A DNA stretch of 64,000 nucleotides from Octopus vulgaris. Taxonomy: Eukaryota. Made by a program: the position numbers and the translations under genes. The notes below the pieces were generated by a model. The model had not been told where the DNA came from and made no database searches. It saw only the letters and a list, made by a program, of their open reading frames with translations. Shown in pieces: positions 8,298 to 60,876 of this stretch (positions are counted from its first letter, which is position 1; every line of letters starts with the position of its first letter). The stretch is taken from assembly GCA_951406725.2 (NCBI GenBank), contig OX597819.1, positions 85,932,001 through 85,996,000 of the forward strand. The letters are read 5' to 3'.

Positions 8298-9359
8298 ATG
8301 GAGGTTGTGACTTCAACATTAGAGTCCAGTTTTATTAAACATCTACCAAACAGCACTGATACTAACCATGAAGACTTTTATCATATGGCTCAATACATTA
8401 CTGGACTTATTGTTTACCCAATCACTTGCGTTTTCGGCATAACTGGCAATATACTTACATTGGTCGTTCTCTCTCACAAAGATTTAGCTACATCAACTAA
8501 TGTCTATCTCTCAGCACTTGCTGTTGGAGATCTGATAAAATTGATCAATGACACGTTGTATTTCATTGTTTTGCTCATTAAGACATGGAATCCCGATAAA
8601 GGTGATGAATCCCTTTCAAGACTTTATCCATACGCCCACTATTTATTTAATTTATCTCTCTGCATAACGGGATGGCTAACAGTATCGGTTGCATTTGAAC
8701 GTTATATTTCTATATGCCATCCAACAAGAGCCAAAGAGATGTGTACTGTTTTTAGAGCTCGCATTGTGAGCACATTTGTATTTATATTTATGATAATATT
8801 CTCACTTCCGTCAGCCCTTCGATATAAAACTGTTATACGGCTACGACCTAATACTAATGACTCATACCACGATGTGGAACTAACTGATTTGGGTCGAAAT
8901 GATGCTTTTATGACTCCTTATACATGGGTACAAAATTGCTTGAGAACGCTTTTACCTTTGCTTATATTAGTTTTCTTGAATGCTCGAATTGTCCACGAGT
9001 TAAGAAGATCACGTGTCCCAGGTAAGAAATTGTCCTCAAGAAACCGTATTACTTTAATGTTAATCGTTGTCGTGATAGTATTTATTATTTGCATTACTCC
9101 AGATGCTATCATGTCGACAGTATTTGGATTTGGCTATTACGATGAAACAAACTTAGTAAGAGGAATCAGAGAAATAACTGACACTCTATTGGCAATCAAC
9201 TCAGCATGTAATTTTGTACTCTACTGTACTATGAGCAAAGTATTTCGAGATACCTTCGTTAAAATGTTTTTAAGGGATTGTACTTGGTGTCCAATGTGGT
9301 GTTCGAATAAATGGAAACTAGAATCTCAAACAAATCAGATTAATAACACGGTAAAATGA
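8298..9359 (+). CDS. Class A (rhodopsin-like) GPCR, FMRFamide/peptide-receptor-like, single coding exon
   Basis: Intact 353-aa ORF with 7 hydrophobic segments and motifs GxxGN (TM1), STNVYLSALAVGD (TM2), AFERYISICHP (E/DRY, TM3), FIICITP (TM6) and NSACNFVLY (NFxxY variant of NPxxY, TM7). N-glycosylation sequon NST near the N-terminus. AATAAA downstream (~9429). Confidence 0.95.
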   Translation: MEVVTSTLESSFIKHLPNSTDTNHEDFYHMAQYITGLIVYPITCVFGITGNILTLVVLSHKDLATSTNVYLSALAVGDLIKLINDTLYFIVLLIKTWNPDKGDESLSRLYPYAHYLFNLSLCITGWLTVSVAFERYISICHPTRAKEMCTVFRARIVSTFVFIFMIIFSLPSALRYKTVIRLRPNTNDSYHDVELTDLGRNDAFMTPYTWVQNCLRTLLPLLILVFLNARIVHELRRSRVPGKKLSSRNRITLMLIVVVIVFIICITPDAIMSTVFGFGYYDETNLVRGIREITDTLLAINSACNFVLYCTMSKVFRDTFVKMFLRDCTWCPMWCSNKWKLESQTNQINNTVK

Positions 9360-24063: not shown

Positions 24064-24115
<52 letters not shown>

Positions 24116-24297
24116 TTAGGGAATAAATCCAAATTTACAGGGAAAAATCAGATTTAGGATTGAATCCAATTTTATAGTAAAATATTATATTATATTAAAT
24201 TAGAGACAAAACCACTATTATGCAAATCAAACAAAGAAAGACTTAAGCCAATACATAACATAATTTATATAAATTTAGAAATTTAACAATTATAAAT

Positions 24298-24358
24298 AAC
24301 CACTACGATCGTTTCATGTCTTATTTCAGCACATCTTTGAGACATTCTTCAGGTGGTT
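24298..24358 (-). ncRNA. Type I hammerhead ribozyme (left arm)
   Basis: Exact reverse complement of 24638-24698. Confidence 0.85.
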
Positions 24359-24637
24359 TCAAAACCTTCTTGGCGAGTTTTAAACTATGAACGGTTGATG
24401 CGCAAGTATGTGTCTCAATAAAACACCCCTCAAGCGTATGACTACCAGGCCAATTTGGAAAACAGAATTACTTAAAACATATCACAATTGGTATTTTCAA
24501 CGTTCTAACCAAATTCTATCAAGAAAAGAATTCCTTCAAAACATACGCGTTACAAAGAGAACAGAGAGATGGGCGACACACCGAACAAAGATAAAGCCAG
24601 GTAGTTCATAGTTTAAAACTCGCCAAGAAGGTTTTGA

Positions 24638-24698
24638 AACCACCTGAAGAATGTCTCAAAGATGTGCTGAAATAAGACATGAAACGATCGTAGTGGTT
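24638..24698 (+). ncRNA. Type I hammerhead ribozyme (right arm)
   Basis: aaccac-CTGAAGA-atgtct-(18-nt loop)-agacat-GAAA-CGATCG-TA-gtggtt: 6-bp stem I, intact core, 6-bp stem II, palindromic stem III and GUA cleavage triplet. Confidence 0.88.
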
Positions 24699-24852
24699 AT
24701 TTATAATTGTTAAATTTCTAAATTTATATAAATTATTTTATGTATTGGCTTAAGTCTTTCTTTGTTTGATTTGCATAATAGTGGTTTTGTCTCTAATTTA
24801 ATATTATATATATATATATACGCGGTGACATATGTATCTATATGCACTTATA

Positions 24853-24964
<112 letters not shown>

Positions 24965-25592
24965 TGTGTGAGCGTGTTTGAGGCTGAGAATGAGGGAGAG
25001 AGAGTGTATGTTTGTGTGTGTGCTTTTGTATGAGTAAACTTATATAAAATGATGCGGTAGATGAGCAAGTATGTGTCTCAATAAAACACCCCTCAAGCGT
25101 ATGACTACCAGGCCAATTTGGAAAACAGAATTACTTAGAACATATCACAATTGGTATTTTCAACGTTCTAACCAAATTCTATCAAGAAAAGAATTCCTTC
25201 AAAACATACGCGTTACAAAGAGAACAGAGAGATGTGCGACACACCGAACAAAGATAAAGCCAGGTAAGCTGTTGATGTGAATAAATTGATGAGAAAATCA
25301 AATCTATATAATTATTATTCAAACTTCAGGACAATTACAAAACAGCAACATCATGAGAACAAAAGGCATTTTCATATATATAATACACATACATACAAAC
25401 TCATAAATATATAAACATACATAAACACATATGTATCTCTCTCTCTCCATATATATATATATATACATATATATATGTATGTATATATGTATGTATGTAT
25501 GTGTGTATGTATCTATGTAATATGTATACATATGTATTTGTGAACGTATGCATACATGTGCATATAGATATATAATATATATATTTATATTA

Positions 25593-26004: not shown

Positions 26005-26973
26005 TCTTTATATATATAAAACTGAGAATCTGTGTCTGTCTGTTTCCCTAAAACTTGAGAACTACACAACCAATTTCATTCAAATTTTACACATGCATTA
26101 CTTAGGGTCCGGGGAGTGTCATCGGCAAAAATAATTTTGAACTTTTTGCCTAGGGCGAGCCCACAGCAATATCATATCTTCTCCACTACGATTCCCTAAA
26201 ACTTGAGGACTACACAACCAATTCCATTCAAATTTTACACATGCCTTACTTAGGGTCCATGTAATTTCATGGGCAAAAAAAATGTTCAACTCCTTGCCTA
26301 GAGCGAGCCCATAGCAATATCATATCTTCTCCACTATTTCAGTATTACGTGTTAAAAGTGAAACAAAAACGTTTCTCTATTTTATGTCAGATACTTTCAC
26401 TTTAACAATAAAAATAAGTAATAATTAAAATCAAACTAAAGTATAATATAATCGTAACATAACAAAAGTAAAAATAGCAATTGGTATAAAATTGCATCAA
26501 TGACTTGAACTTGAATAAGTGGTTTCACATGAATGGGAATAAATTAAAAATAAAATTAGCGTGCAGATATGCAATAGTCCAGATTGATAATAAAAAATTA
26601 AATTAAAGAAAAGCCTATTGTCTATAAAGTATACAATGTAGAGAAAATAGAAGATTTGAACACCTGGAGGAAAGCACCTTCGAAATGTGTCTTGGTGCGA
26701 CTATGAAAGGTATGTAATCAGAGGCGGTAAGTTCGCCACAATAGAAGCAAGTTTCAAGTCAACGGAGCGTGCAAGGGAGTACTCGACTCGAACTTGCAAA
26801 GTGGAAATATTTTACATTTACCTTTATATCTGGGACGTAGGACATCCCGGAAAAGAATTTAAAATCCCCAAACCCAGAAGTAGAGGTAGGCTGGATTGTA
26901 GCCACACTTCTATACAAGAGGGAGGACAAGATACAATTGATCGAAATTACAAGAGACGGGCTAACAATTCTAG
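26005..26973 (+). mobile_element. Non-autonomous Helitron-like element
   Basis: Starts a|TCtttatatatataaaa and ends ...gacgggctaacaattCTAG|t (A|T target, 5'-TC and CTAG-3' ends). It has an internal ~147-bp tandem duplication (26045-26190 / 26192-26337). Confidence 0.6.
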
Positions 26974-27155: not shown

Positions 27156-27190
<35 letters not shown>

Positions 27191-28819
27191 CAGTTGCGGC
27201 CAAAATGTTCAGAACGGCATTGTTTTCGTCAGAACAGTAGGTATAAGTTTTTATCAAAGTTGTTTTATATTCTATAATTTTCACAGACAATAAAGACAAT
27301 ATTAATTGTTATTATCTAAGATTTTCGTGTAATTTGAGAAGATAATACAAAAGTTATGGATGATTTAGTGATTTACTGCAAAACCCATGGCGGCCAAAAT
27401 GATCAGAACGGTTGAAAAAATAAAAAAATAATCAAAAATGACAGAGAATACTGGAATTATTTAATATTTAGTGTGAAGCCTTTTAGCTTCAATCACACTT
27501 TGACATCTTCAACTGTATGAGGAAATTAAATTTTCAATTTCTTGCTGGGTGATCTTATTCTATTCTTCCTGAAAGGCATTCCATATTTGCTCAGTTGTTT
27601 TAGGATTTCTGGCTTTCGAACGTTCTCTTAGAATATTCCACACATTTTAAATAGGATTGAGATCTGGGCTTTGAGCAGGCCAATCCATAACAATAACCTT
27701 TTCAGCCTTGAGGAAGTTCATGGCCACCTTAGCCTTGTGACATGGGGCATTGTCCTGCATAAATATGGGTGGTCACTTAGTTGAATTTCTTAGCACAGGC
27801 AAGACATGATTTTTTACAAGTTGTTTATAAACTCCTGCATTTAGCTTTCCACGTAATCGCACCAAAGGGCCCACACCATCTCCAGATATCATTCCCCAAA
27901 CCATGACACTTCCTCCACCGAATTTAACACTAGTCTTAAGGCATTTAGGCGGCAATTTTTCACCTCCTGTTTTACGAACGTACCTTTTCCTATCTGAGCC
28001 AAATAACATAAACTTAGATTCGTCACTGAAATGCACCGATTGCCATTTTTCTTGAGACCACAACACATGTTCGGTTGCAAAGGTAAGACGACACTTTTTA
28101 TTCTTGGAGCTGATCAGTGGCTTCACTGCAGGTGCTCTTGCTTGTAGGTCATGTTCAACTAAACGACGAGACACAGTTTTTCGAGATAAAGTTTTCTTCA
28201 GTACAATGCTCATTTCCCGAGAAACAGCAGCAGCAGTTTTAAATATGTCCTTTTTAACCAACTTTACCATAGCACGATCTTCTCTCTTGGTCGTTTTTCT
28301 TGGCCTACCTGTAGACTGTCTTGCTTCACACGAACCACAATCATCGTAGACCTTAAGAATACCGTGAACAACTCTTTTTGACTTGTTAATAATCTTTGCA
28401 ATAGACCCAATACTTAAATTATCCTTCTTTCGAAGCTTAATAATCTTTTGACGAATTGGTAACGGAGTAAGTGGCATTATATTAACAAAGTGCACTGCAG
28501 ATATTCTTACTAATGTTTAGTAAACGAACCGTCCCGTAAACAAATTCAAAACATTAGAGTTCGCCAGTTAAATATATTAAAACACGGAGTAAAAGCAACC
28601 GTTCTGATCATTTTTGCCGCCATGGGTTTTGCAGTAAATCACTAAATCATCCATAACTTTCGTATTATCCTCTCAAATTACACAAAACTCTGGGAAATTA
28701 GCAATTAATATCGTATTTATTGTCTGTGAAAATTATAGAATATATAACAACTTTGATAAAAACTTATACCTACTTATCTGACGAAAACAATGCTGTTCTG
28801 AATATTTTGGCCGCAACTG
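27191..28819 (-). mobile_element. Full-length Tc1 (DD34E) transposon with ~223-bp IR/DR-type TIRs and TA TSD
   Basis: TA|cagttgcggccaaaatgttcagaacgg at the left and its reverse complement ...ttttggccgcaactg|TA at the right. Inner direct repeats gcggccaaaatgatcagaacgg lie at ~27390-27413 and 28597-28620. Confidence 0.95.
27461..28477 (-). pseudogene. Tc1 transposase pseudogene
   Basis: GRPRKTT, FSDESKF and GGGSVMVWG are in the ORF. Reading through the stop at 27773 gives FMQDNAPCH...WPAQSPDLNPI*NVW...HTKY*, with four internal stops, one replacing the catalytic E (34 residues after the second D). Confidence 0.93.
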
Positions 28820-28918
28820 TATATATGTGCACGCAACTTTATCCTCGTAGACACATAGGTATTTGCACGCATACACATAATATAATACATATATATTTAG
28901 ATATACATATAAATATAC

Positions 28919-31408: not shown

Positions 31409-31689
31409 ATAAATATTAGGGAATAAATCCAAATTTACAGGGAAAAATCAGATTTAGGATTGAATCCAATTTTATAGTAAAATATAATATAATATTAATT
31501 AGAGACAAGACCACTATTATGCAAATCAAACAAAGAAAGACTTAATCCAATACATAAAAAATTTTATATAAATTAAATATAATTATATTTAATTTATATA
31601 AAATTATATATATATATATATATATATATGGTATGTATGCATGTATGTATGTGCGTAAATGTATGTGTAGATATGTGTCAATATTTGTG

Positions 31690-34390: not shown

Positions 34391-34603
34391 CAAACAAACA
34401 CAAACGCACATGCTTATTCATATGACATTTCAAGCACTACAAGTGTCACTTTCCAATTTAAAAAATCGTGACATTACGACGCATATGAATTCGAAATTCG
34501 AAAGACACGCAACGAGTGTTCTAATTGTATTGATGACGAATATATCTACTTTGCTATATATTCTGGAAAATGTTAACTTCAAATATAGTTCTACGAATCA
34601 CAT

Positions 34604-34691
<88 letters not shown>

Positions 34692-35018: not shown

Positions 35019-35067
<49 letters not shown>

Positions 35068-35120
35068 GTACATATAGATATAATGTACACACACACATAT
35101 ATCTATATATATATATAGAC

Positions 35121-35812
35121 ATACAAATATTTTATGATTATAAACATAATTATAATTAGCGGGGTTCAGCGGATTGCTTCACCACATATCGAATTTAGAA
35201 ATAGGAGTTGAAAATTCCTTTTCTGCTACCGTAAGAATCTCCCAGTCAGTAATACACTCTTTTACGTATGCAAAGAGAAAAATAATGAATCAACACGACT
35301 CCGAGTAGCCACAGACGCGTTTCGAGATTAACGTATTTAATTTACTTCTCGTCATCAGTATAGCATTTCCATTATAAAATTTGAAAGTACTTGGGCTAAA
35401 TACAAACACGATCGAGCGACGTCATGCAAAAGATATCCAGCCAACACTTTCAAAATTTACACAGTGAATGTGAATACATATTTATCCCTTGTACCCACGT
35501 GTATGTTATGAGTTGTACCGCAAAAAACAAAAGTATTCGATCAGGGAGTAGATTATAATTTAAAATTAATAATAAAAGGGTAAAATTAATTAATTAATCA
35601 ATCAATTAACTAATAATTTTACCAAGTAGATCGGTATGTTAAAATAACCTTTATAGGTAAAATTATACAAATATTTTATAATTAGAAACATAATTATAAT
35701 TAGGGGTCAGCTAATTGCTTCACCACATACCAAATTTAGAAATAGGAGTTAAAATTTCCTTTTCTACTGCCGTAAGAATCTCTCAGACAGTAACGCACTC
35801 TCTTACGTAGGC
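35121..35812 (-). mobile_element. Retrozyme-like element, 1.3 units of a 544-bp monomer with a hammerhead
   Basis: 35121-35272 is repeated at 35665-35812 (period 544). It is flanked by (TA)n and shares motifs (gggtaaaattaattaatt, accaagt, ttagaaatag) with the 545-bp array unit. Confidence 0.8.
35308..35364 (-). ncRNA. Type I hammerhead ribozyme
   Basis: Minus strand reads gctata-CTGATGA-c-GAGA...TCTC-GAAA-CGCG-TC-tgtggc (6-bp stem I with G-U pairs, GUC triplet). Confidence 0.8.
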
Positions 35813-35813
35813 A

Positions 35814-35886
<73 letters not shown>

Positions 35887-43533: not shown

Positions 43534-46500
43534 TACATTATATAAAAGGGCTTAGTAAAATAAATTACTTTGCCGCATACTGAACTCATTAGAAATAGCA
43601 GCTAAAAAACTTTTTTAAAGCTATTTCTAATACTTAAAGAAAATCTCTCTCATATATAGTGTTTGCTTAAGTTTGGGGGTAAGGACATTAAAAAATCAAA
43701 TGCTAAGGTTATTTGAGAACGTACGTTTCAAGATTAGTCAAAACAACACTTCTATCATCAGCTCAGAAACTCCTTGGTTTGGATTTGGAAACACTGAAAG
43801 TAAGAACATACCCTTTCGAAGATCCGCTCGTAACTAACAGTGCCAACAAACCCAAATAAGCAAGCGAAGAATTTCTGTTCTCCCCTTTCCACCAGCGTGG
43901 GTTAAAATCATCAAACGCTATGCTTATTTCGGTAAAATCCGAAGCATTAATTAGAGGGAGATTAATTATAATTTCAACAATTGAGGGTAAAATTAATTAA
44001 TTATTAATCAATTTCACCAAGTGTTCAGTATGCAAAGGGACCATTTAAGGCGAATTCAAATTATTACATTATATAAAAGGGCTTAGTAAAATAAATTACT
44101 TTGCCGCATACTGAACTCATTAGAAATAGCAGCTAAAAAACTTTTTTAAAGCTATTTCTAATACTTAAAGAAAATCTCTCATATATAGTGTTTGCTTAAT
44201 TCAACTCACAAAAGTTTGGGGGTAAGGACATTAAAAAATCAAATGCTAAGGTTATTTGAGAACGTACGTTTCAAGATTAGTCAAAACAACACTTCTATCA
44301 TCAGCTCAGAAACTCCTTTCTTTAAGTATTAGAAATAGCTTTAAAAAAGTTTTTTAGCTGCTATTTCTAATTAATCTCCCTCTAATTAATGCTTCGGATT
44401 TTACCGAAATAAGCATAGCGTTTGATGATTTTAACCCACGCTGGTGGAAAGGGGAGAACAGAAATTCTTCGCTTGCTTATTTGGGTTTGTTGGCACTGTT
44501 AGTTACGAGCGGATCTTCGAAAGGGTATGTTCTTACTTTCAGTGTTTCCAAATCCAAACCAAGGAGTTTCTGAGCTGATGATAGAAGTGTTGTTTTGACT
44601 AATCTTGAAACGTACGTTCTCAAATAACCTTAGCATTTGATTTTTTAATGTCCTTACCCCCAAACTTTTGTGAGTTGAATTAAGCAAACACTATATATGA
44701 GAGAGATTTTCTTTAAGTATTAGAAATAGCTTTAAAAAAGTTTTTTAGCTGCTATTTCTAATGAGTTCAGTATGCGGCAAAGTAATTTATTTTACTAAGC
44801 CCTTTTATATAATGTAATAATTTGAATTCGCCTTAAATGGTCCCTTTGCATACTGAACACTTGGTGAAATTGATTAATAATTAATTAATTTTACCCTCAA
44901 TTGTTGAAATTATAATTAATCTCCCTCTAATTAATGCTTCGGATTTTACCGAAATAAGCATAGCGTTTGATGATTTTAACCCACGCTGGTGGAAAGGGGA
45001 GAACAGAAATTCTTCGCTTGCTTATTTGGGTTTGTTGGCACTGTTAGTTACGAGCGGATCTTCGAAAGGGTATGTTCTTACTTTCAGTGTTTCCAAATCC
45101 AAACCAAGGAGTTTCTGAGCTGATGATAGAAGTGTTGTTTTGACTAATCTTGAAACGTACGTTCTCAAATAACCTTAGCATTTGATTTTTTAATGTCCTT
45201 ACCCCCAAACTTTTGTGAGTTGAATTAAGCAAACACTATATATGAGAGAGATTTTCTTTAAGTATTAGAAATAGCTTTAAAAAGTTTTTTAGCTGCTATT
45301 TCTAATGAGTTCAGTATGCGGCAAAGTAATTTATTTTACTAAGCCCTTTTATATAATGTAATAATTTGAATTCGCCTTAAATGGTCCCTTTGCATACTGA
45401 ACACTTGGTGAAATTGATTAATAATTAATTAATTTTACCCTCAATTGTTGAAATTATAATTAATCTCCCTCTAATTAATGCTTCGGATTTTACCGAAATA
45501 AGCATAGCGTTTGATGATTTTAACCCACGCTGGTGGAAAGGGGAGAACAGAAATTCTTCGCTTGCTTATTTGGGTTTGTTGGCACTGTTAGTTACGAGCG
45601 GATCTTCGAAAGGGTATGTTCTTACTTTCAGTGTTTCCAAATCCAAACCAAGGAGTTTCTGAGCTGATGATAGAAGTGTTGTTTTGACTAATCTTGAAAC
45701 GTACGTTCTCAAATAACCTTAGCATTTGATTTTTTAATGTCCTTACCCCCAAACTTTTGTGAGTTGAATTAAGCAAACACTATATATGAGAGAGATTTTC
45801 TTTAAGTATTAGAAATAGCTTTAAAAAAGTTTTTTAGCTGCTATTTCTAATGAGTTCAGTATGCGGCAAAGTAATTTATTTTACTAAGCCCTTTTATATA
45901 ATGTAATAATTTGAATTCGCCTTAAATGGTCCCTTTGCATACTGAACACTTGGTGAAATTGATTAATAATTAATTAATTTTACCCTCAATTGTTGAAATT
46001 ATAATTAATCTCCCTCTAATTAATGCTTCGGATTTTACCGAAATAAGCATAGCGTTTGATGATTTTAACCCACGCTGGTGGAAAGGGGAGAACAGAAATT
46101 CTTCGCTTGCTTATTTGGGTTTGTTGGCACTGTTAGTTACGAGCGGATCTTCGAAAGGGTATGTTCTTACTTTCAGTGTTTCCAAATCCAAACCAAGGAG
46201 TTTCTGAGCTGATGATAGAAGTGTTGTTTTGACTAATCTTGAAACGTACGTTCTCAAATAACCTTAGCATTTGATTTTTTAATGTCCTTACCCCCAAACT
46301 TTTGTGAGTTGAATTAAGCAAACACTATATATGAGAGAGATTTTCTTTAAGTATTAGAAATAGCTTTAAAAAAGTTTTTTAGCTGCTATTTCTAATGAGT
46401 TCAGTATGCGGCAAAGTAATTTATTTTACTAAGCCCTTTTATATAATGTAATAATTTGAATTCGCCTTAAATGGTCCCTTTGCATACTGAACACTTGGTG

Positions 46501-47093
46501 AAATTGATTAATAATTAATTAATTTTACCCTCAATTGTTGAAATTATAATTAATCTCCCTCTAATTAATGCTTCGGATTTTACCGAAATAAGCATAGCGT
46601 TTGATGATTTTAACCCACGCTGGTGGAAAGGGGAGAACAGAAATTCTTCGCTTGCTTATTTGGGTTTGTTGGCACTGTTAGTTACGAGCGGATCTTCGAA
46701 AGGGTATGTTCTTACTTTCAGTGTTTCCAAATCCAAACCAAGGAGTTTCTGAGCTGATGATAGAAGTGTTGTTTTGACTAATCTTGAAACGTACGTTCTC
46801 AAATAACCTTAGCATTTGATTTTTTAATGTCCTTACCCCCAAACTTTTGTGAGTTGAATTAAGCAAACACTATATATGAGAGAGATTTTCTTTAAGTATT
46901 AGAAATAGCTTTAAAAAAGTTTTTTAGCTGCTATTTCTAATGAGTTCAGTATGCGGCAAAGTAATTTATTTTACTAAGCCCTTTTATATAATGTAATAAT
47001 TTGAATTCGCCTTAAATGGTCCCTTTGCATACTGAACACTTGGTGAAATTGATTAATAATTAATTAATTTTACCCTCAATTGTTGAAATTATA
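43534..47093. repeat. Array of 545-bp hammerhead-containing monomers: ~1.4 inverted copies then 5 tandem copies, inserted in (TA)n
   Basis: Plus-strand units start at ~44372, 44917, 45461, 46006 and 46551 and are almost identical. 43534-44316 is the same sequence in the opposite orientation. Confidence 0.97.
44571..44622 (+). ncRNA. Type I hammerhead motif of the 545-bp monomer (also + 45116-45167, 45660-45711, 46205-46256, 46750-46801; - 43714-43765, 44257-44308)
   Basis: tgag-CTGATGA-tagaag...aatctt-GAAA-CGTACG-TT-ctca: 4-bp stem I, intact core, short/weak stem II, palindromic stem III and GUU triplet. Confidence 0.75.
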
Positions 47094-47324
47094 TATATAT
47101 ACATATATACATATATATATACACATTGCAAAAGAGCTGAATTCGAAATTCGAAAGACACGCAATGAGTGTCCTATTTGTCATATTGATAACAAACATAT
47201 CTCCTTTGCTATGTATATTATAAATGTTACCTTCAATCATAGTTCTTCGAGTCACATAATATAGACATACATACATACATGCATGCATGTTTACATACAA
47301 ACATACGTACATACTAACAAGCAC

Positions 47325-49395: not shown

Positions 49396-49816
49396 CTTAC
49401 TTATAAATGTATGCGTGGCGGTCGATCATATAATAGTATAAATAATATATGTATATTTGCATATATACACACATATATGTACATTCCTACATATATATGT
49501 ATATATACATGCATATATGGGTACATGACGTCAAACACACACACACACACGTCCATTTCATATAGACGTACATAAACTTTTACTTTCTTTCTCTGTTCTT
49601 TTCGCTTTGTCTTCTTTCAATTTCTGCTCTCTTGAAATACATTTTTACATAATGAGCGTGAGAAACACAGAAAAGACGTAATCTCTCCAGAAACAAGTAT
49701 AAAGCAAGAAGGATTGTAGAAAACCGAAGGCAAGTGTCTGAAGAGAGATGAGATTTCTCAAGATCAGCAAATTCATGTTGCAGCACTTAATGCTGGATCA
49801 TTAAATCAATGTTTTA

Positions 49817-50634
49817 ATGATTAGACAGAGGTCCAGTAGTATAGCTCTCAGAAACACACTACGCACAAATTTATTCTTCACAACTCCTGAAGTTGTTTTC
49901 AGATATGATCCATCCCGTTCATATAAAAATGATAACTCTGTCCAAATTGGTGTGCTAAACACAAATTGTCGTTTATGTAGAGCTTTAAAATTTTCAAATG
50001 AACCAGACGGTAAGTGCTGCTCAGGTGGCAAGGCAACATTGCCAGCACTACCAGCTCCTTCTCAACCTCTTATGAATCTTCTAGAAGGCACTTCCATCAA
50101 GTCAAAAGATTTCCTTAACAATTTCAGACAATACAACTCTGCACTTCAAATGACAGCGTTTGGAGCATCTAAGAAGATTGATAAACATGAATTTACGCCG
50201 ACGTCAGAGTTCAAGAGCAAGTCTATCACCTCATTGGTTCTCTGTTACTCGCAAATGAACAACCACAGTTCCTCCAAACTTAGTTTATGAGTGATGTAGG
50301 ACAATAAACCCGACGGAAGTGCCAAAATTCCAGATGATGAGTCGCGTTACACACAGTGCCAACTGCTGCAAAGGAAAGTATATCCACTGACTGATTTTCG
50401 GTGCCTTCAAAAATCATATAAACCCCACATCCAATTTTCCATGACTGGTTAGGGCCTGAAATGCTTCAAACGGACGCATAGCATGTTGCTTAGTCAAAGC
50501 AGCCCATCATTTACTCCACAAATGTTTTGCTGTCAATGCTGCACTTCCCATATCACCTGTTTCAACATAACTGTAAAACATTATATACAGACTATGCCAT
50601 TTTAATCTCGAGCAATGCCGGGTATCTCTGCTAG
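49817..50634 (+). mobile_element. Helitron relic (RepHel N-terminal fragment plus 3' end), copy 1
   Basis: CRLCRALKF..E...CCSGGK.LP...SKDFLNNFRQYNSALQMTAFGA, then a frameshifted RVQEQVYHLIGSL. The 3' end is ctcgagcaatgccggg...tgCTAG|t. Confidence 0.85.
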
Positions 50635-50716
50635 TATATATACATATAAATACGTATGTAAGTATGCATATATATATGTATATATATATATATATATATA
50701 TAAATACGTATGTAAG

Positions 50717-50816
<100 letters not shown>

Positions 50817-50858
50817 AATATGTATACATATTTATATATTTATATATACATATGTATA

Positions 50859-50896
<38 letters not shown>

Positions 50897-50919
50897 CATG
50901 TGAATATCTATGCCTATGT

Positions 50920-50962
<43 letters not shown>

Positions 50963-51513
50963 TAGATAAAACATATATGTATATATGTTTGTGTGTGTGC
51001 GTGTTTGTGAATGTGTTCGTGTGTGTGCGTGCGTGCGTGTGTATTGTATTTATGATGGATAGAATTAGATGAGTCTCGATGACAGGTTTATGTTATTTGT
51101 CGACAAGAATCTCACAAATTATATCTTTTAACGAGATAATGATTTTTCGATTTTGATGACCTGATTGAATTTAAATAGTATGGTTGTTTGATCACTCTAC
51201 TTCTTACCCGTTGTAGCCACACCTAATTTTCCTATATATTCGTGCATTAAGATTGTATAACCTAGTGCTGCAACTGATGTTTAAGTTGTTCAGGTCGCTG
51301 GATGATACCTCACTTTTTTGATATTTTATCTGTTTAAAATTTTGCCTGATGATGATGAATTCTAGGTTATGACGTAATCCTTTCTGCTAGCTTTAGAAAA
51401 AATTCTACTAAAACAGCTATCACAAATTTAAAACACAAGCTGTGTTTATATTTTTATAGGACCAACCATGGAGTTGGATCCATGGTTTAAATTCGAGGTG
51501 GTAATTAAATATC

Positions 51514-51922: not shown

Positions 51923-52217
51923 TATCTAGAGTACCTTACCTACACTTGATCTTCTCAATATAGTTTACCCCTCTGTGAGATCTATTTTCTCGTACCTAGC
52001 CATTCCTTGCGTTTAATGTGTTGATGTACATATGTTCTTATGAATCCATATAACTATACGATATATATATATATATGCGATTCTTTTATTGTTTTATTTC
52101 GTTCAGTCATTTGACTGCAGCCATGAACCGCCTTGAATTTTTTGTCGAATGGATCGACCTCACTTAATTATTTTGTGAGCCTGACCCTTAATGCTGGATC
52201 ATTAAATCAATGTTTTA

Positions 52218-53029
52218 ATGATTAGACAGAGGTCCAGTAGTATAGCTCTCAGAAACACACTACGCACAAATTTATTCTTCACAACTCCTGAAGTTGTTTT
52301 CAGATATGATCCATCCCATTCTTATAAAAATGATAACTCTGCCCAAATTGGTGTGCTAAACACAAATTGTCGTTTATGTAGAGCTTTAAAATTTTCAAAT
52401 GAACCAGACGGTAAGTAATGCTCAGGCGGCAAGGCAACATTGCCAGCACTACCAGCTCCTTCTCAACCTCTTATGAATCTTCTAGAAGGCACTTCCATCA
52501 AGTCAAAAGATTTCCTTAACAATTTCAGACAATACAACTCTGCACTTCAAATGACAGCGTTTGGAGCATCTAAGAAAATTGATAACCATGAATTTACGCC
52601 GACGTCAGAGTTCAAGAGCAAGTCTATCACCTCATTGGTTCCCTGTTACTCGCAAATGAACAACCACAGTTCCTCCAAACTTAGTTTATGAGTGATGTAG
52701 GACAATAAACCCGACGGAAGTGCCAAAATTCCAGATGATGAGTCGCGTTACACACAGTGCCAACTGCTGCAAAGGAAAGTATATCCACTGACTGATTTTC
52801 GGTGCCTTCAAAAATCATATAAACCCCACATCCAATTTTCCATGACTGGTTAGGGCCTGAAATGCTTCAAACGGACGCATAGCATGTTGCTTAGTCGAAG
52901 CAGCCCATCATTTACTCCACAAATGTTTTGCTATCAATGCTGCACTTTCCCATATCACTTGTTTCAACATAACTGTAATACATTATATACAGACTATGCC
53001 ATTTTAATCTCGAGCGGGTATCTCTGCTA

Positions 53030-53030
<1 letters not shown>
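52218..53030 (+). mobile_element. Helitron relic, copy 2
   Basis: Duplicate of 49817-50634 with an extra stop (TGC>TAA) and a deletion in the terminal hairpin. Confidence 0.85.
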
Positions 53031-53068
<38 letters not shown>

Positions 53069-53114
53069 CGTATGTAAGTATGTATATATATATATATATA
53101 AATACGTATGTAAG

Positions 53115-53150
<36 letters not shown>

Positions 53151-53269
53151 CGTATGTAAGTATGTATATATATATATATATATATAAATATATATATACA
53201 TATACATATATATATATATATATACATATGTATGTAAATATGTATACATATTTATATATTTATATATAC

Positions 53270-53312
<43 letters not shown>

Positions 53313-53342
53313 TGGCATGTGAATATCTATGCCTATGTGTAC

Positions 53343-53387
<45 letters not shown>

Positions 53388-54184
53388 TAGATAAAACATA
53401 TATGTATATATGTTTGTGTGTGTGCGTGTTTGTGAATGTGTTCGTGTGTGTGCGTGCGTGCGTGTGTATTGTATTTATGATGGATAGAATTAGATGAGTC
53501 TCGATGACAGGTTTATGTTATTTGTCGACAAGAATCTCACAAATTATATCTTTTAACGAGATAATGATTTTTCGATTTTGATGACCTGATTGAATTTAAA
53601 TAGTACGGTTGTTTGATCACTCTACTTCTTACTTACCCGTTGTAGCCACACCTAATTTTCCTATATATTCGTGCATTAAGATTGTATAACCTAATGCTGC
53701 AACTGATGTTTAAGTTGTTCAGGTCGCTGGATGATACCTCATTTTTTTGATATTTTATCTGTTTAAAATTTTGCCTGATGATGATGAATTCTAGGTTATG
53801 ACGTAATCCTTTCTGCTAGCTTTAGAAAAAATTCTACTAAAACAGCTATCACAAATTTAAAACACCAGCTGTGTTTATATTTTTATAGGACCAACCATGG
53901 AGTTGGATCCATGGTTTAAATTCGAGGTGGTAATTAAATATCTAGAGTACCTTACCTACACTTGATCTTCTCAATATAGTTTACCCCTCTGTGAGATCTA
54001 TTTTCTCGTACCTAGCCATTCCTTGCGTTTAATGTGTTGATGTACATATGTTCTTATGAATCCATATAACTATACGATATATATATATATATATATAATA
54101 TTTGTAAACAGGCTTTGTAAGTTACGGAGAGGAAGCTACTATGGAAACTCAGTAAAATAATAACTGTATAATATTATATATTAC

Positions 54185-54534: not shown

Positions 54535-57500
54535 ACTAAGGATGTGCCTGAACCCAGAATGCAACCACCACCATCTGAAGGGCACAAAACGATCGCAAAA
54601 TAAATATAAACAGCAACAGAGGAGATCTACGACAACAACAAAAACAAAATACAACCACGTTTCACCTCCTACAATCAAACAACGAAGACAGAACCATGAA
54701 AAAACCATATCACCAAATAACAAAAACATGAAGTATGTATTCCCTGACCAAGTGGCAAACCAAAGAGGCAACTCTTTTTTACTGACTTACCTAGAAAATA
54801 TGAAGGCCGACCTAAGCCAGGAGATCCAACGTGCTATCAGCAACCATTCAAGCAAACCACAAGGCCCACACACCCTCTACCAACAAGAAAATCACACACA
54901 CACAGCTCCATACAAAAACTACCCACATTGTTACCACTGAACAACATAAGACATAACTTAGAACAATGCAAACATCAAACTACCCTTACCTCGACATTCC
55001 TGTTAAATGTACGTGGCATCAACCCATCAATCATTGCCCAAGAATGGAAGATCCCATATATAGAGAGTTGGCTTGCCGAAACGGCACATTGCTTCCCTTT
55101 CTTTATCCTTGCTGAAACTCACCTAAACAACACCCATATGGATGCCGAGGTGAAAATAAAAGATTTCACCATCGTTTGTTCAGATCGCACAGAGGGACAG
55201 CCATCTTTATCCATGACTCCTTTTCGCTTGATGCCAAGGACATATTTTCCAATGACTATTGTGAATCTATATCCCTATTCAACAAGGCCAAAGATATAAT
55301 CATTGTTGGTCTTTACAGGCCTCCCCAAGCACCTTTAAAGTGCTTCGAAGAGTGCCTTAACAAAATCAAGTCCTTCCTTCAAAAATACAACTCTGGAAAC
55401 ATACTAGTGATGGGTGATTTTTAACCTTCCTCATATATTGGCCCACAAATACTCTGACGTTAGGCAAATGCTCCACATCAGATAAAGCAGCAGCAGAATT
55501 ACTTTTTAATCTAATGGATAAATTCTTCCTGACTCATCTAGTGCTCGAACCAACAAGACAGAATAAAACGATCTTGGATCTAATATTAACCAACCACTCT
55601 AGCTTTGTTCACAGTATTTCAGTTGAAAAAAACTCTCCTCTCAGACCACGACATGGTACTCTGCAATTTTAATTCCCGGCATATAAAAACCAAACCAGCC
55701 ACTCCCACTCCATAGCACTCATTTGACAACATAAACTTCCACAATGCGGACTGGGGGGCAATCAGAAAGGATCTGTCTTTCATCGACTGGTCTTTTACTC
55801 TCAATTCCACCCAAATTGAGACCGCATGGCAGCACTTTGAGAACATTGTCACCTATACATGCTCTAAACACGCTCCTACGAAATCTACTAACACAAACAG
55901 AAACTGGCTCCCTAAAAAGAAAAAAACACTCATCAGGCGCATCAAAAGACTCAATAAAAAAATCAAGCAATTAAAATATTCCCACATACAACATCCACAT
56001 TCGACAACAATGAAAAGGCTAGAGTTGGAAAAACCTCATCTGCTGACCGACATGAAAACCTCCATTGAAAATCAAAGAGCTGTGGAGGAACAGTGGGTAA
56101 TCAAAAACATCAAACAGAACCCAAAAGTGTTCTATTCTTATGCAAATAAGCATAGAACCACTGTCTCACCCATTGGGCCATTGAGTAATGATAACGGCAT
56201 TCCACAACACGATGCTAAAGAAATGGCAGAAATACTGCAGAAACAATACTGCTCTGTCTTTAGTGATCCCACTGATATTGGCGTAAGAGCGAACGAAGTT
56301 GATTCCCAACATAAAATCTCAGACATAACCTTCACTGCCTCTGACACCATAGCAGCAATAAATAAGGTCAAATAATATTCTGCTGTAGGCCCTGATAGAT
56401 TCCCCGCTAGTCTCCTGAAGGAATGTAGACACCAATTTGCAGTCCCTTTGACCAACCTCTGGAGAAATTCGTTAGACTCAGGTTATATACCGAAACAGCT
56501 TCTATCCCAGTCTGTCATCCCGGTTTTCAAACAGGGAAACAGATCCCTCGCTGTCAACTATTGCCCAATCTCACTCACCTCCCACATCATTAAAGTGTTT
56601 GAAAAAGTGTTAAGATCAAGGATAGCTGACTTCCTGGAGACCCACAAACTCCTAAATGCAAATCAGCATGGCTTTCGCTGTGGCAGGGACTGTCTAACAC
56701 AGCTTTTATACCACATTGAAGATGTACTCAAAGCCTTGGGAACAGGTTCGAACTCTGATGTCATATATCTTGACTTCAGTAAAGCGTTCGACAGGGTTGA
56801 CCGTAATATCCTACTCTCAAAATTGGCAAATGTTGGAATCCGTGGAAAACTTCTACACTGGATTAAGTATTTCCTGCCGAATAGAACACAACATGTTGCA
56901 GTTGATGGAGTCCATTCAAGCCCAGCAAAAGTCACCAGCGGTGTCCCCCAGGGGACTGTCTTGGGCCCGCTATTCTTTATAATTTACATAAACGACCTTT
57001 CCAGTGTCGTACATTACTGCAAAGTAATAATATTTGCTGATGACACTAAGCTCCAGCAAATCCTCAATGAAGAAGCAAACCAAACTCAACTCCAGTCTGA
57101 TCTATATGCTGTGAGTCAATGGGCAGACAGAAACAAAATGCAACTGAACGAGGGAAAATTTGAGCTGATGCATTTTGGAAGAAATTCCTCACTAAAACAG
57201 CCATACTCTCTTCCTTCAGGGGAACCGCTCACAGCCTCTAACAATATAACAATATAAGACCTGGGTGTAATTGTTGATGACGATCTCAGTTGGAGTGCTC
57301 ACATCAACAATAAGGTCGATATAGCTCGTAGGATGAGTTCCTGGATCTTAAGAACTTTCCGGTCCAGAGAACAAGGTCTCATCATACCACTTTTCTCCTC
57401 CTTTGTACGGCCACACATCGAATACTGATGGACACTGTGGTCTCCCCATACAAGACAAAACATCTCGAGGATTGAATCACCCCAGAGGGCACCCACTAAA

Positions 57501-58012
57501 CGAATTGAAGGCATGGCTGCTCTTGATTATTGGGACCGCCTTAAAGCCTTGAAACTCTACTCTCTCCAGCGTCGCCGTGAGCGGTACATCATTTGCATGA
57601 TGTGGAGAATATACCGCCAACTTTGCCCAAACGACCTGAACATTAGCTTCAAGGTTCATCCAAGTCTGGGACCACGGGCCATACGTCCCCTACCCAATCC
57701 AAGATCACGGCATATATGTACACTGCAACATAATTTCTTTTCTTCAACAGGCCCTGCTCTATTTAACATTGTCCCGAAAGAGATCAAAGAGGAAAAGGAT
57801 CCCATCAACTTTAAACGGAGTCTGGATAGATTGCTTCAAGGAATACCAGATAAGCCACCCATAATTGGATACAATTCACTCAACCAAAGCTCACTACTTG
57901 AATGGACCATAAACAAAACTTGACTCAAACAGGATTTAGATAATCCTATCTGGTGGTGCTATTAAGTTAGACATGGCCTGGACCAATCTTTGGTCGAAAC
58001 ATATCTAAGTTT
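54535..58012 (+). mobile_element. Near-full-length CR1-type LINE (APE + RT), pseudogenised
   Basis: ORF1 tail ([10 protein letters not shown]); APE motifs LLNVRG, LAETHL, GLYRPP, VMGDF, LDLILTN and SDH; RT motifs PISLTSHIIKVFE, YLDFSKAFD, SGVPQGTVLGP and FADD; C-terminal LYSLQRRRERY. Several frameshifts and stops. (TA)n at both ends. Confidence 0.93.
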
Positions 58013-58833: not shown

Positions 58834-59485
58834 TATATAAAACAATGATTTGAAACATACGTATTAAATGCTTTCAAAATATGATTATTTGGTTTGATTT
58901 CATTTATATTATGTGTATGTATGTGAATGTGTGTGTGTTTGTGTGTGTTTGTGCATGTGTGTGCATGCATGTGATGTTGTGTACGTGCATCTATGTGTTT
59001 GTAAAATTATATATCTTTAGGTATAGGCACCAATTTATATCTAAATATCTGCATGCATAAATTTCCATCTTTTCTATTTCGCTTTCTATCTCCGTTTCTG
59101 CTAAATATTCTTTTATACGTCTGTTTCCAAATTCTGCCGCTGTTCACAGTTGCAAGTGATATACATTATATATTCTTTATGTTTGATATCTTACAATCTA
59201 AATTACAGTATTGACGAAATGCACATATTCATAATTTAAACATCCTCTAAACACTTAGAACGCAATTCTGAATTCAAGCTAAGTTGTTAATTTATCTTAG
59301 CTAAACATTTTGCATTTAATCAGTTCTCACCGTAAAATAAATATGACAAAATCTAAATTTAAACATCCTGTTTACATATTGCATTGTATACTGACTTTAT
59401 TTCTAACTCGTGCTACTTTTAACGCTATCATTAAATTTCATATGCTCTCTATTATCTCCAGTCACTTACATTACTAACTTGCGAC

Positions 59486-60876
59486 CAGTTCAAGAAAGGG
59501 AGCCGCGAAGACCCGCTTAACTACCGACCGGTTTCCCTTACATCAATAATCAGCAAGATGTTCGAAACCATCCTTAAGAAAAGTATGATGCTCCACCTCC
59601 TAAGCACAGCCTCGATCACTGATTCCCAACACGGCTTCGTGCCGAAGAGATCATGCTTGACCAACTTACTAGTAATGGAAGAATTGGTGACGCGCATCCT
59701 CGATGATAGTGATGCTGTTGACATCGTTTTATTGGACTTTGCCAAAGCTTTTGACTCGGTAAACCACCGCCTACTACTTGTCAAGCTTCAAGCATATAGT
59801 TTCCATCCGGATATTGTACGATGGGTTGGTGCCTTCCTCTCAGATCGCTCCTTCCAAGTTCAAGTTAATGGTTCGCGGTCCGACGTCTCCAGTGCGAACA
59901 GTGGCGTGCCTCAAGGTTCAGTGCTTGGGCCCTTGTTGTTCTTAGTCTTCATAAATGACTTGCCCGACGACCTCACGCAACACACCCTTCTATTTGCCGA
60001 CGATATCAAACTGGTCGCTCCTCGCGGTAGTATAGAGGATCTTCGTCGATGCCTCCACCAAATTTGGAAGTGGTCTAACGATTGGGACCTGTGTCTGAAC
60101 GTGTCAAAGTGCTGTCATCTGCCTGTCGGCTCTACTCCTACAACTCAACTTGATTTCGAGCCGGGTCGTCTGCTGCTGGAAGGGACCGATCAGGTAAAGG
60201 ACCTGGGTATCTTGGGTGGATTCCTCCTTTTCGCCTTCGGCCCAGTGCGTCCATGCTGCCAACAAAGCGCGCGGAATTCTGTTTTTGATTCGACGGTCAT
60301 TCGGAGTGCTCACAGCAGCCATATTCCTGCCACTCTATGTCACGCTGGTGAGACCCATATTGGAGTATGGGATTCAAGCCTCTTCTCCTTATCTCCTCAA
60401 AGACATACAGCACCTCGAAAGAGTTCAGAAGCTGGCTACCCGCCTGGTTCATGGTCTCAAAAATTTGTCCTACGAAGAAAGGCTGAGGACGCTCGACCTT
60501 TATTCTCTTGAAAAACGCCGCCGCCGTGGTGATCTCATTCTCGCCCACAACATCATAAGCGGGAAGTGTAACCTCTCGAAAGAGCTGTTCTTCGCTCCTG
60601 CTCCGGAGCGTCGGCTGCGGGGTCATTCCGAAAAGCTCTACCTGCGACGATTTCATCTCAATCGAAGGAGAGGAGCTTTCTCCGTCCGGGTTGCGGATCC
60701 GTGGAACAAGCTGCCAGATGAGATGGTGAAGATGCCGACGACCGCTTTGTTCAAAGCCTCCCTGGACCTCAAGTGGCCTGAACTCTTTACATGAACACCA
60801 CCCTGTACTTAACTCCATGTCCCCCTACATGGCCTTGCTATTTGCTTTTGAGCCAAATTAACTAACTAACTAACTA
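59486..60876 (+). mobile_element. Young 5'-truncated CR1/L2-group LINE with (AACT)n tail and probable TSD
   Basis: YRPVSLTSIISKMFE, LDFAKAFDSV, SGVPQGSVLGP, FADD and LYSLEKRRRRGDLI, with a single frameshift near 60215. GC-richer than the flanks. actaactt(g/c)cgac occurs at 59473-59485 and 60877-60889. Confidence 0.92.

Follow-up and report, generated by a model that had tools for sequence, protein, structure and literature searches.

The insertion at positions 35121 to 35812 of the window (the whole 64,000-nucleotide stretch of Octopus vulgaris DNA analysed here) is most probably a diverged, non-autonomous Penelope-type retroelement copy of the non-LTR retrozyme kind, bearing a single hammerhead and likely inserted in trans into a TA microsatellite by the enzyme of an autonomous Penelope-like element (PLE). 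It is not itself an autonomous PLE: its 692 bases, read on the minus strand, are non-coding with a GC content of 31.5%, no ORF was found in the six frames and the longest stop-free frame has 56 codons. A first-pass annotation had described the locus as a diverged sister of a nearby 545-bp array that keeps the period and an intact hammerhead of the latter. Its observations were partly confirmed (terminal repeat, order of motifs, hammerhead and homology), while its statements on the period and on the ribozyme stems had to be corrected.

The insertion comprises 1.27 units. A full unit is located at 35121 to 35664 on the minus strand (544 nt with the left repeat; 541 nt when taken as 35272-35812), and beside it lies a 5'-truncated partial unit of 148 nt at 35665 to 35812 (minus strand), which forms a pseudo-LTR-like direct repeat and ends before any second hammerhead. 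Across 148 aligned columns the two repeats (35121-35271 and 35665-35812) show 17 substitutions, besides an indel of 3 nt, with a divergence of approximately 6% for each repeat (JC 0.062, if one template gave both repeats). Because of this indel the direct repeat has two offsets, namely 544 over its first ~38 nt (15 exact 9-mers) and 541 over the other ~110 nt (25 exact 9-mers); the previously given period of 544 is therefore valid for the first part only. The inferred target is a (TA)n-type microsatellite, found at 35031 to 35117 on the left flank and, in the tract listing, as (TA)33 at 35816 to 35881 on the right flank. While (TA)n occurs on both sides of all three hammerhead elements of the window, such tracts are common there (87 rows in the tract listing), the window being AT-rich and crowded with microsatellites.

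A type I hammerhead was identified by descriptor on the minus strand at 35308 to 35364 (core 35358-35314) and possesses 13 of 13 core nucleotides, in agreement with the intact motif reported earlier. Stem I (35364-35359/35313-35308, GCUAUA/UGUGGC) is accompanied by the core segment CUGAUGA (35358-35352), an extra nucleotide C after A9 (35351), stem II (35350-35347/35327-35324, GAGA/UCUC, closed by G-C), the core segment GAAA (35323-35320) and stem III, the palindrome ACGCGU (CGCG; 35320-35315), with cleavage predicted from the GUC motif to occur after C35314. Ten descriptor matches were obtained in the window (seven in the sister array, two in a third element and the one at 35308-35364), as against 0.08 false positives per shuffled window; the strict form of the descriptor gave none in 150 shuffles. 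Rfam gave no gathering hits in the window and three chance-level hits at E<=10, none of them a hammerhead, and in the 91-nt region the minimum-energy fold is a structure other than the hammerhead (z 0.09). By its extra nucleotide after A9, its G10.1-C11.1 pair and its palindromic helix III, the motif fits the metazoan PLE consensus, which has been described as CUGANGAH G..C GAAAN-palindrome-NUH for hammerheads that cleave poorly in vitro (PMC4209133). As to loop 1-loop 2 contacts, no distal extension of stem I was seen by eye in 35308-35364, and Rfam gave no match. Activity would need a second hammerhead, because the palindromic stem III leaves a 2-nt loop in the monomer; the self-duplex of ACGCGU is predicted at -7.5 kcal/mol. 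As the locus has a single hammerhead, this copy is likely inert. The intact core of a single copy is uninformative here, since a neutral copy at ~6% divergence keeps the hammerhead core approximately 40-45% of the time.

The sister array, as delimited by descriptor and period analysis, consists of near-identical units of 544/545 nt at 44365 to 47093, with five hammerheads on the plus strand. Inverted partial copies of the same family, with two hammerheads on the minus strand, lie head-to-head with it at 43534 to ~44320. The family as a whole occupies 43534 to 47093, both of its outer ends are in (TA)n and the right end carries a 98-nt extension. The periods of the array are 545, 544, 545 and 545, the units differing by one base in an A run. 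Aligning the two monomers, as the first-pass annotation had suggested, gave significant homology. The global score was 171 against 45±14 for shuffled sequences (maximum 86.5 of 50) and the local score 235 against 118±11 (maximum 151.5 of 300). Judged by these alignments, the unit at 35121-35812 is homologous to the 545-bp array, and with 325 of 597 columns identical (54%) its primary sequence is strongly diverged, as had been noted. The motifs ttagaaatag, hammerhead, gggtaaaattaattaatt and accaagt follow one another just as they do on the opposite strand of the array. Anchor-to-anchor segments measure 157/226/43/115 nt in the element and 180/230/31/104 nt in the array; the equivalent position ascribed to the hammerhead accordingly applies to its order, while its place is displaced by up to 23 nt.

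The hammerhead stems were said to differ completely between the two families while staying paired. This is correct for stem I, where four comparable core-anchored pairs show three double-sided changes and one single-sided change, whereas stems II and III are related: AGAAGT...TAATCT of stem II is common to both, and the two families have CG..CG in stem III, where the array contains an additional palindromic TA. A MAFFT alignment was left out of these pair counts because it misregistered the ribozyme core. The array has a U.U at the base of stem II, in which it resembles many ribozymes of Hydra-clade PLEs.

Outside the ribozyme, several structures were predicted on the minus strand of the element. 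Hairpin C (35372 to 35465, -32 kcal/mol) lies just upstream of the ribozyme, and a hairpin of different sequence is predicted at its place in the array. Hairpin A (35737 to 35765, with a second copy at 35196-35224) has as its 3' arm the motif that reads ttagaaatag on the plus strand. Stem D (35631 to 35733, with arms 35733-35725 and 35639-35631) spans the unit junction and shows two double-sided changes relative to the array in the direct alignment. Hairpin B (35579 to 35623), whose arms are the gggtaaaattaattaatt and accaagt motifs, is ~12 nt longer than that of the array. In both predicted folds the modules recur in one order, namely hairpin C, hairpin A, stem D and hairpin B. On circular folding (25 dinucleotide shuffles each), the ribozyme strand gave z scores of -6.2 (541-nt form), -2.7 (544-nt form) and -6.9 (array), and the opposite strand -1.1, -1.6 and, for the array, -3.4. 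By these predictions, and a further z of -3.0, the monomer RNA is highly self-paired, with a fold that is branched and not rod-like. The joint fold of element and array reached -37.9, compared with -17.7±3.8 for 60 column shuffles and -17.3 on the opposite strand. Double-sided changes over the whole unit showed no excess (12, control 9.6±3.3).

The insertion ends fall within this structured region and not at the predicted cleavage site. The 3' end at 35121 is located 193 nt downstream of the latter and stops 25 nt short of the 3' arm of stem D. At the inverted end of the sister family (43534), the distance beyond the cut is equivalent to 198 nt in a regular unit, and this end stops 31 nt short of that arm, while the other end of the array reaches 98 nt further, to just beyond hairpin B. 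In the predicted fold, the loop of stem D holds this recurrent 3' end. One end of the third hammerhead element, the left, is likewise longer than the other, by ~80 nt. It has been described that PLE insertions show partial tandems, 5' truncation, inverted copies, one-sided tails and (TA)n targets (PMC8557442, PMC3846280), and that in an Anolis PLE two internal reverse transcription start sites in a stem-loop give rise to an optional tail, ribozyme cleavage being dispensable for insertion in vitro (PMC11167929). At 35121-35812 there is a 5'-truncated partial tandem whose 3' end is shared; inverted head-to-head copies and the optional tail are absent there and present in the sister array. At the inversion point of the array (44317-44371), a strand switch at hairpin A is followed by a jump of ~190 nt past stem D and hairpin B, and 13 nt are missing from the outer inverted copy near 43670; together these look like repeated template switching. 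A 125-nt repeat, 83% identical between 34486-34605 and 47138-47259, lies near the element and the array end and is probably an unrelated dispersed repeat.

Comparison with PLE pseudo-LTRs as described (PMC4209133, PMC8557442) shows the same ribozyme consensus, 5'-truncated partial tandem and (TA)n target without visible target-site duplication, and the head-to-head inversion and one-sided extension of those sequences are shared by the sister array. The locus differs in having no RT-GIY-YIG ORF, and the extension of the array (98 nt) differs from the 30-40 nt of PLE tails. PLEs that target (TA)n and bear hammerheads are known from the genus Octopus, e.g. Hydra-1_Obim (PMC8557442), and O. vulgaris has recently active Penelope families, ribozymes being unmentioned in the main text of that report (PMC13282606). 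The ribozyme of Hydra-1_Obim lies ~30 nt from the end of the element (PMC8557442), as opposed to 193 nt in 35121-35812, and the 3' ends are unlike. Hydra-1_Obim was rejected as parent of the unit, as by eye no likeness was seen and its short 3' end is dissimilar. No autonomous partner was found in the supplement of Craig et al. using short motifs and inspection by eye; seven exact motifs from the window had no matches in this supplement, where FASTA line breaks can hide matches. The element Poseidon of Anolis carolinensis (Frangieh et al. 2024, PMC11167929) resembles the Octopus families in having its ends inside a predicted stem-loop away from the cut, two alternative ends and an AT-rich target. 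Poseidon, however, is autonomous, and its start sites lie downstream of a nearby ribozyme in a stem-loop that is AC-rich and belongs to the ORF (PMC11167929), whereas the loop of the octopus unit is AU-rich and non-coding, with a putative function.

Homologous sequences were identified in public contigs. Words of the element are shared by 20 runs (13 studies), none of them recorded as RNA; four of the runs were aligned at a likeness of at least 80%. Three DNA-type or unlabelled runs from three organisms contain 1371, 1444 and 1922 family contigs at this level, and a 220-nt contig identical to the 35121-35812 locus is present in runs X1 and X2; the family is thus multi-copy. Its deepest part is the stem D module: depth over 35622-35741 was 47-66 times that over 35334-35525, contig depth not being equal to copy number, and this 3' bias may be due to 5' truncation, stronger conservation or both. 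Ribozyme position 2.2 is C in ~90% of depth, giving a Watson-Crick C-G pair in place of the U.G of the 35121-35812 copy, and the extra nucleotide after A9 (35351) is C, U or absent across the contigs. Scoring 38 of the 40 variants listed out of 160 (two minority variants were excluded), pairing in the whole-element fold is kept at 16 of 21 paired variant positions and broken at five. In hairpin C, among the variants listed, it is kept at six of seven, including one double change (35396/35440), and broken at one.

Loose contig ends at 35731 (19 contigs in run X2 and 11 in X6) continue as array-like hairpin A sequence, which links the two families. Fourteen X6 contigs continue past 35121 into sequence resembling the next unit, and two X15 contigs end at 35664 in a CA/TA tract. 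Six of the 15 joints listed (38 in total) are strand switches, each found in single contigs and possibly artefacts at 80% likeness; the ribozyme core is deleted in three of the 15, again in single contigs. Joints going back 532-542 were rejected as evidence of a tandem period, as an alignment that changes from one reference repeat to the other would produce them. Run X15 (68 contigs) covers the 3' module and not 35334-35477, a gap that was not used as evidence because this run was only presumed to be RNA and ends are not visible in contigs. A 619-nt X15 contig with 544 letters ahead of its aligned part was set aside, the aligner masking 35579-35618. The shared ribozyme pattern had no matches in metagenome contigs or in viral contigs, a weak null result given that these collections are not animal genomes.

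Several other features were observed in the window. The third hammerhead element (24110-24810) is a head-to-head inverted pair between (TA)n tracts, its hammerheads reading CUGAAGA...GAAA CGAUCG UA with 6-bp stems I and II; by eye, the start of stem II resembles that of Hydra-1_Obim. A 3' fragment of its family is found at 31412-31574. The 212-nt spacer between its inverted copies (24392-24603) is a 98% copy of 25055-25266, 450 nt downstream, suggesting that flanking DNA was captured or that a local duplication occurred at insertion. As kin of the 545-nt families this element was rejected, as it could not be aligned with them (scores of 90 and 108, within those of shuffles). Two tandem copies of a 148-nt unit, 88% identical to each other, are located at 26044-26336, and the descriptor found no hammerhead in them. 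A near-perfect palindrome of 318 nt (98%) lies between TA tracts at 1754-2072. A single-ORF GPCR at 8298-9359 (plus strand) groups with FMRFamide-receptor-like proteins from three species of Octopus. Terminal inverted repeats of 231 nt and a frame resembling a transposase (27776-28516, minus strand) are present in the element at 27184-28826, which is taken to be Tc1/mariner-like. Broken endonuclease/reverse-transcriptase frames at 54748-57920 and 59435-60791 are presumably of LINE type, and a local duplication (49786-51513 and 52187-53942, ~98% identity) contains a frame at 49805-50287 that we assume, from its looks, to be Helitron-like.

Non-LTR retrozymes have been described as circular RNAs of 170-400 nt in coral, mussel and axolotl (Cervera & de la Pena 2020, PMC7229834), and as sequences of 51-972 bp that derive from PLE pLTRs and include many monomer copies (Li, Clavereau & Pollet 2026, 10.64898/2026.07.22.740005). 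The Octopus units share with them a unit that is AT-rich and non-coding, carries one type I hammerhead and has no LTR-type organisation, the occurrence of tandem arrays together with dispersed monomer-type copies, a predicted self-paired RNA and a proposed mobilisation by PLEs. At 541-544 nt, the present unit is outside the former size range and inside the latter. Its ribozyme is of PLE type and not clearly of the canonical type with loop-loop contacts, and the retrozymes are known as RNA, whereas 35121-35812 is known from its sequence. Li et al. define as active a locus in which two or more units in a row have complete hammerheads (10.64898/2026.07.22.740005). The array has five such hammerheads; 35121-35812 has one and for this reason is a monomer-type copy and not an active retrozyme. 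No report of a cephalopod retrozyme was found in full-text searches, which leave most subscription papers outside, and the supplement of PMC7229834 may list one.

The following series of events may account for these features. Transcription on the ribozyme strand would take place at source loci made up of several units, of which the sister array is an example, and neighbouring hammerheads, as in other animals, would pair via their palindromic stem III and cut out monomers of ~545 nt. The monomers may be circularised; the chances that a circle or an uncut multimer served as template seem about equal. The next step would be a nick in (TA)n, made by a Penelope-type RT-endonuclease; target-primed reverse transcription would then start from the stem D module inside the RNA, either in the stem D loop or past hairpin B, ~100 nt further on, rather than at the ribozyme cut; for this step the end positions are observed and the suggested cause is drawn from the Anolis element. 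Copying beyond one unit followed by an early stop would yield the partial tandem, and strand switches would yield head-to-head inverted copies, an architecture observed in the array. The single-ribozyme locus at 35121-35812 would release no monomer, and its sequence has likely decayed from the time of its insertion onwards. The length of the array extension relative to PLE tails, and that of the unit relative to the retrozyme RNAs of PMC7229834, speak against this reading. Further points against it are that no autonomous partner turned up in the supplement of Craig et al., that the hammerhead is missed by Rfam and differs from the local minimum-energy fold, that double-sided changes over the whole unit do not exceed their control, that five of 21 paired variant positions break a pair, that insertion of the Anolis element in vitro did not require ribozyme cleavage, and that in Xenopus eight of nine dimers were without cleavage (10.64898/2026.07.22.740005).

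The first-pass annotation held that unit length and ribozyme fold are under selection and that this points to a replicating RNA family. Its interpretation is supported as regards spread through RNA and retention of the ribozyme fold, and lacks support as regards selection on length. The alignment of element and array contains 31 gaps totalling 107 nt, which net to 1-4 nt; with random gap signs, a net difference of <=1 nt was obtained in 5.2% and of <=4 nt in 10.5% of trials. The match is at most suggestive, as it consists of two points with shared ancestry, one of which itself has a period of 541-544, and similar unit lengths are already predicted by common descent. The ribozyme fold, on the other hand, is kept between both families, as seen from the compensatory changes of stem I, the C-G majority at position 2.2 and the strand-biased joint fold. 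A family spreading through RNA fits Penelope-type retrotransposition in trans, but nothing points to RNA-to-RNA replication.

Three other explanations were weighed against this one. The unit could be a pseudo-LTR or an internal-deletion derivative of an autonomous PLE, copied from uncut linear read-through RNA with no monomer or circle, so that the ribozyme is a mere passenger. This would agree with the poor in vitro cleavage of PLE-type hammerheads (PMC4209133), with the normal insertion of Anolis PLE ribozyme mutants in vitro and the absence of RNA-seq reads ending at the cut (PMC11167929), and with insertion ends ~195 nt from the cut site, a deepest module that has no ribozyme and the core deletions among the joints listed. 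However, the core and the pairing of stem I are retained across two families at 54% identity, the entire unit and not only its ends folds better than shuffles, and the unit shows no trace of an ORF; we consider this explanation unlikely, although it keeps some weight. Far less probable is a viroid-like RNA of ~545 nt that replicates from RNA to RNA under length constraint, the genomic copies being its reverse-transcribed fossils. Unit lengths within 1-4 nt of each other despite 107 nt of indels (P 0.05-0.10) and the self-paired predicted fold are in line with such a replicon, and RNA-to-RNA steps have been raised as possible for retrozymes and PLE ribozymes (PMC7229834, PMC4209133). Yet the lengths are only two and of common ancestry, the element's own period being 541 or 544, the ribozyme is found on a single polarity, the fold is branched and not rod-like, the shared ribozyme pattern is unmatched in viral or metagenome contigs, and PLE-type insertion fully explains the genomic architecture.

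It is equally hard to credit that the repeats are a neutral satellite, or a rolling-circle or hairpin-ended element moving at the DNA level, with the hammerhead-like motif as a relic or product of chance. The near homogeneity of the sister array (one indel over four periods) is as would result from unequal crossing-over or recent amplification, and DNA also forms AT-rich hairpins, but the low false-positive rate of the descriptor (0.08 per window), the bias of folding to the ribozyme strand, the covariation of stem I and the dispersed copies with 3'-biased depth and strand switches all argue otherwise. A radiation in Octopus of large hammerhead circular RNAs of constant size (~545 nt), in which hairpins trade length and stem D with hairpin B acts as a portable signal for a Penelope reverse transcriptase to start within the circle, is a speculative reading that we think improbable. 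Were it true, the families would represent an RNA replicon under a size constraint, and nature would have mapped in them the cis-element for Penelope mobilisation.

The finding of a probably Penelope-type, single-hammerhead copy adds an Octopus example to a known class, in which tandem repeats with type I hammerheads derive from Penelope-like elements or are mobilised by them. Predicted hairpins outside the ribozyme are common to the two families, which are 54% identical, and the insertion ends of both fall in the same loop, which makes these modules candidates for a signal recognised by the Penelope enzyme. The shared modules and ends would also offer a cheap test of whether retrozyme copies come from circles or from uncut multimers.
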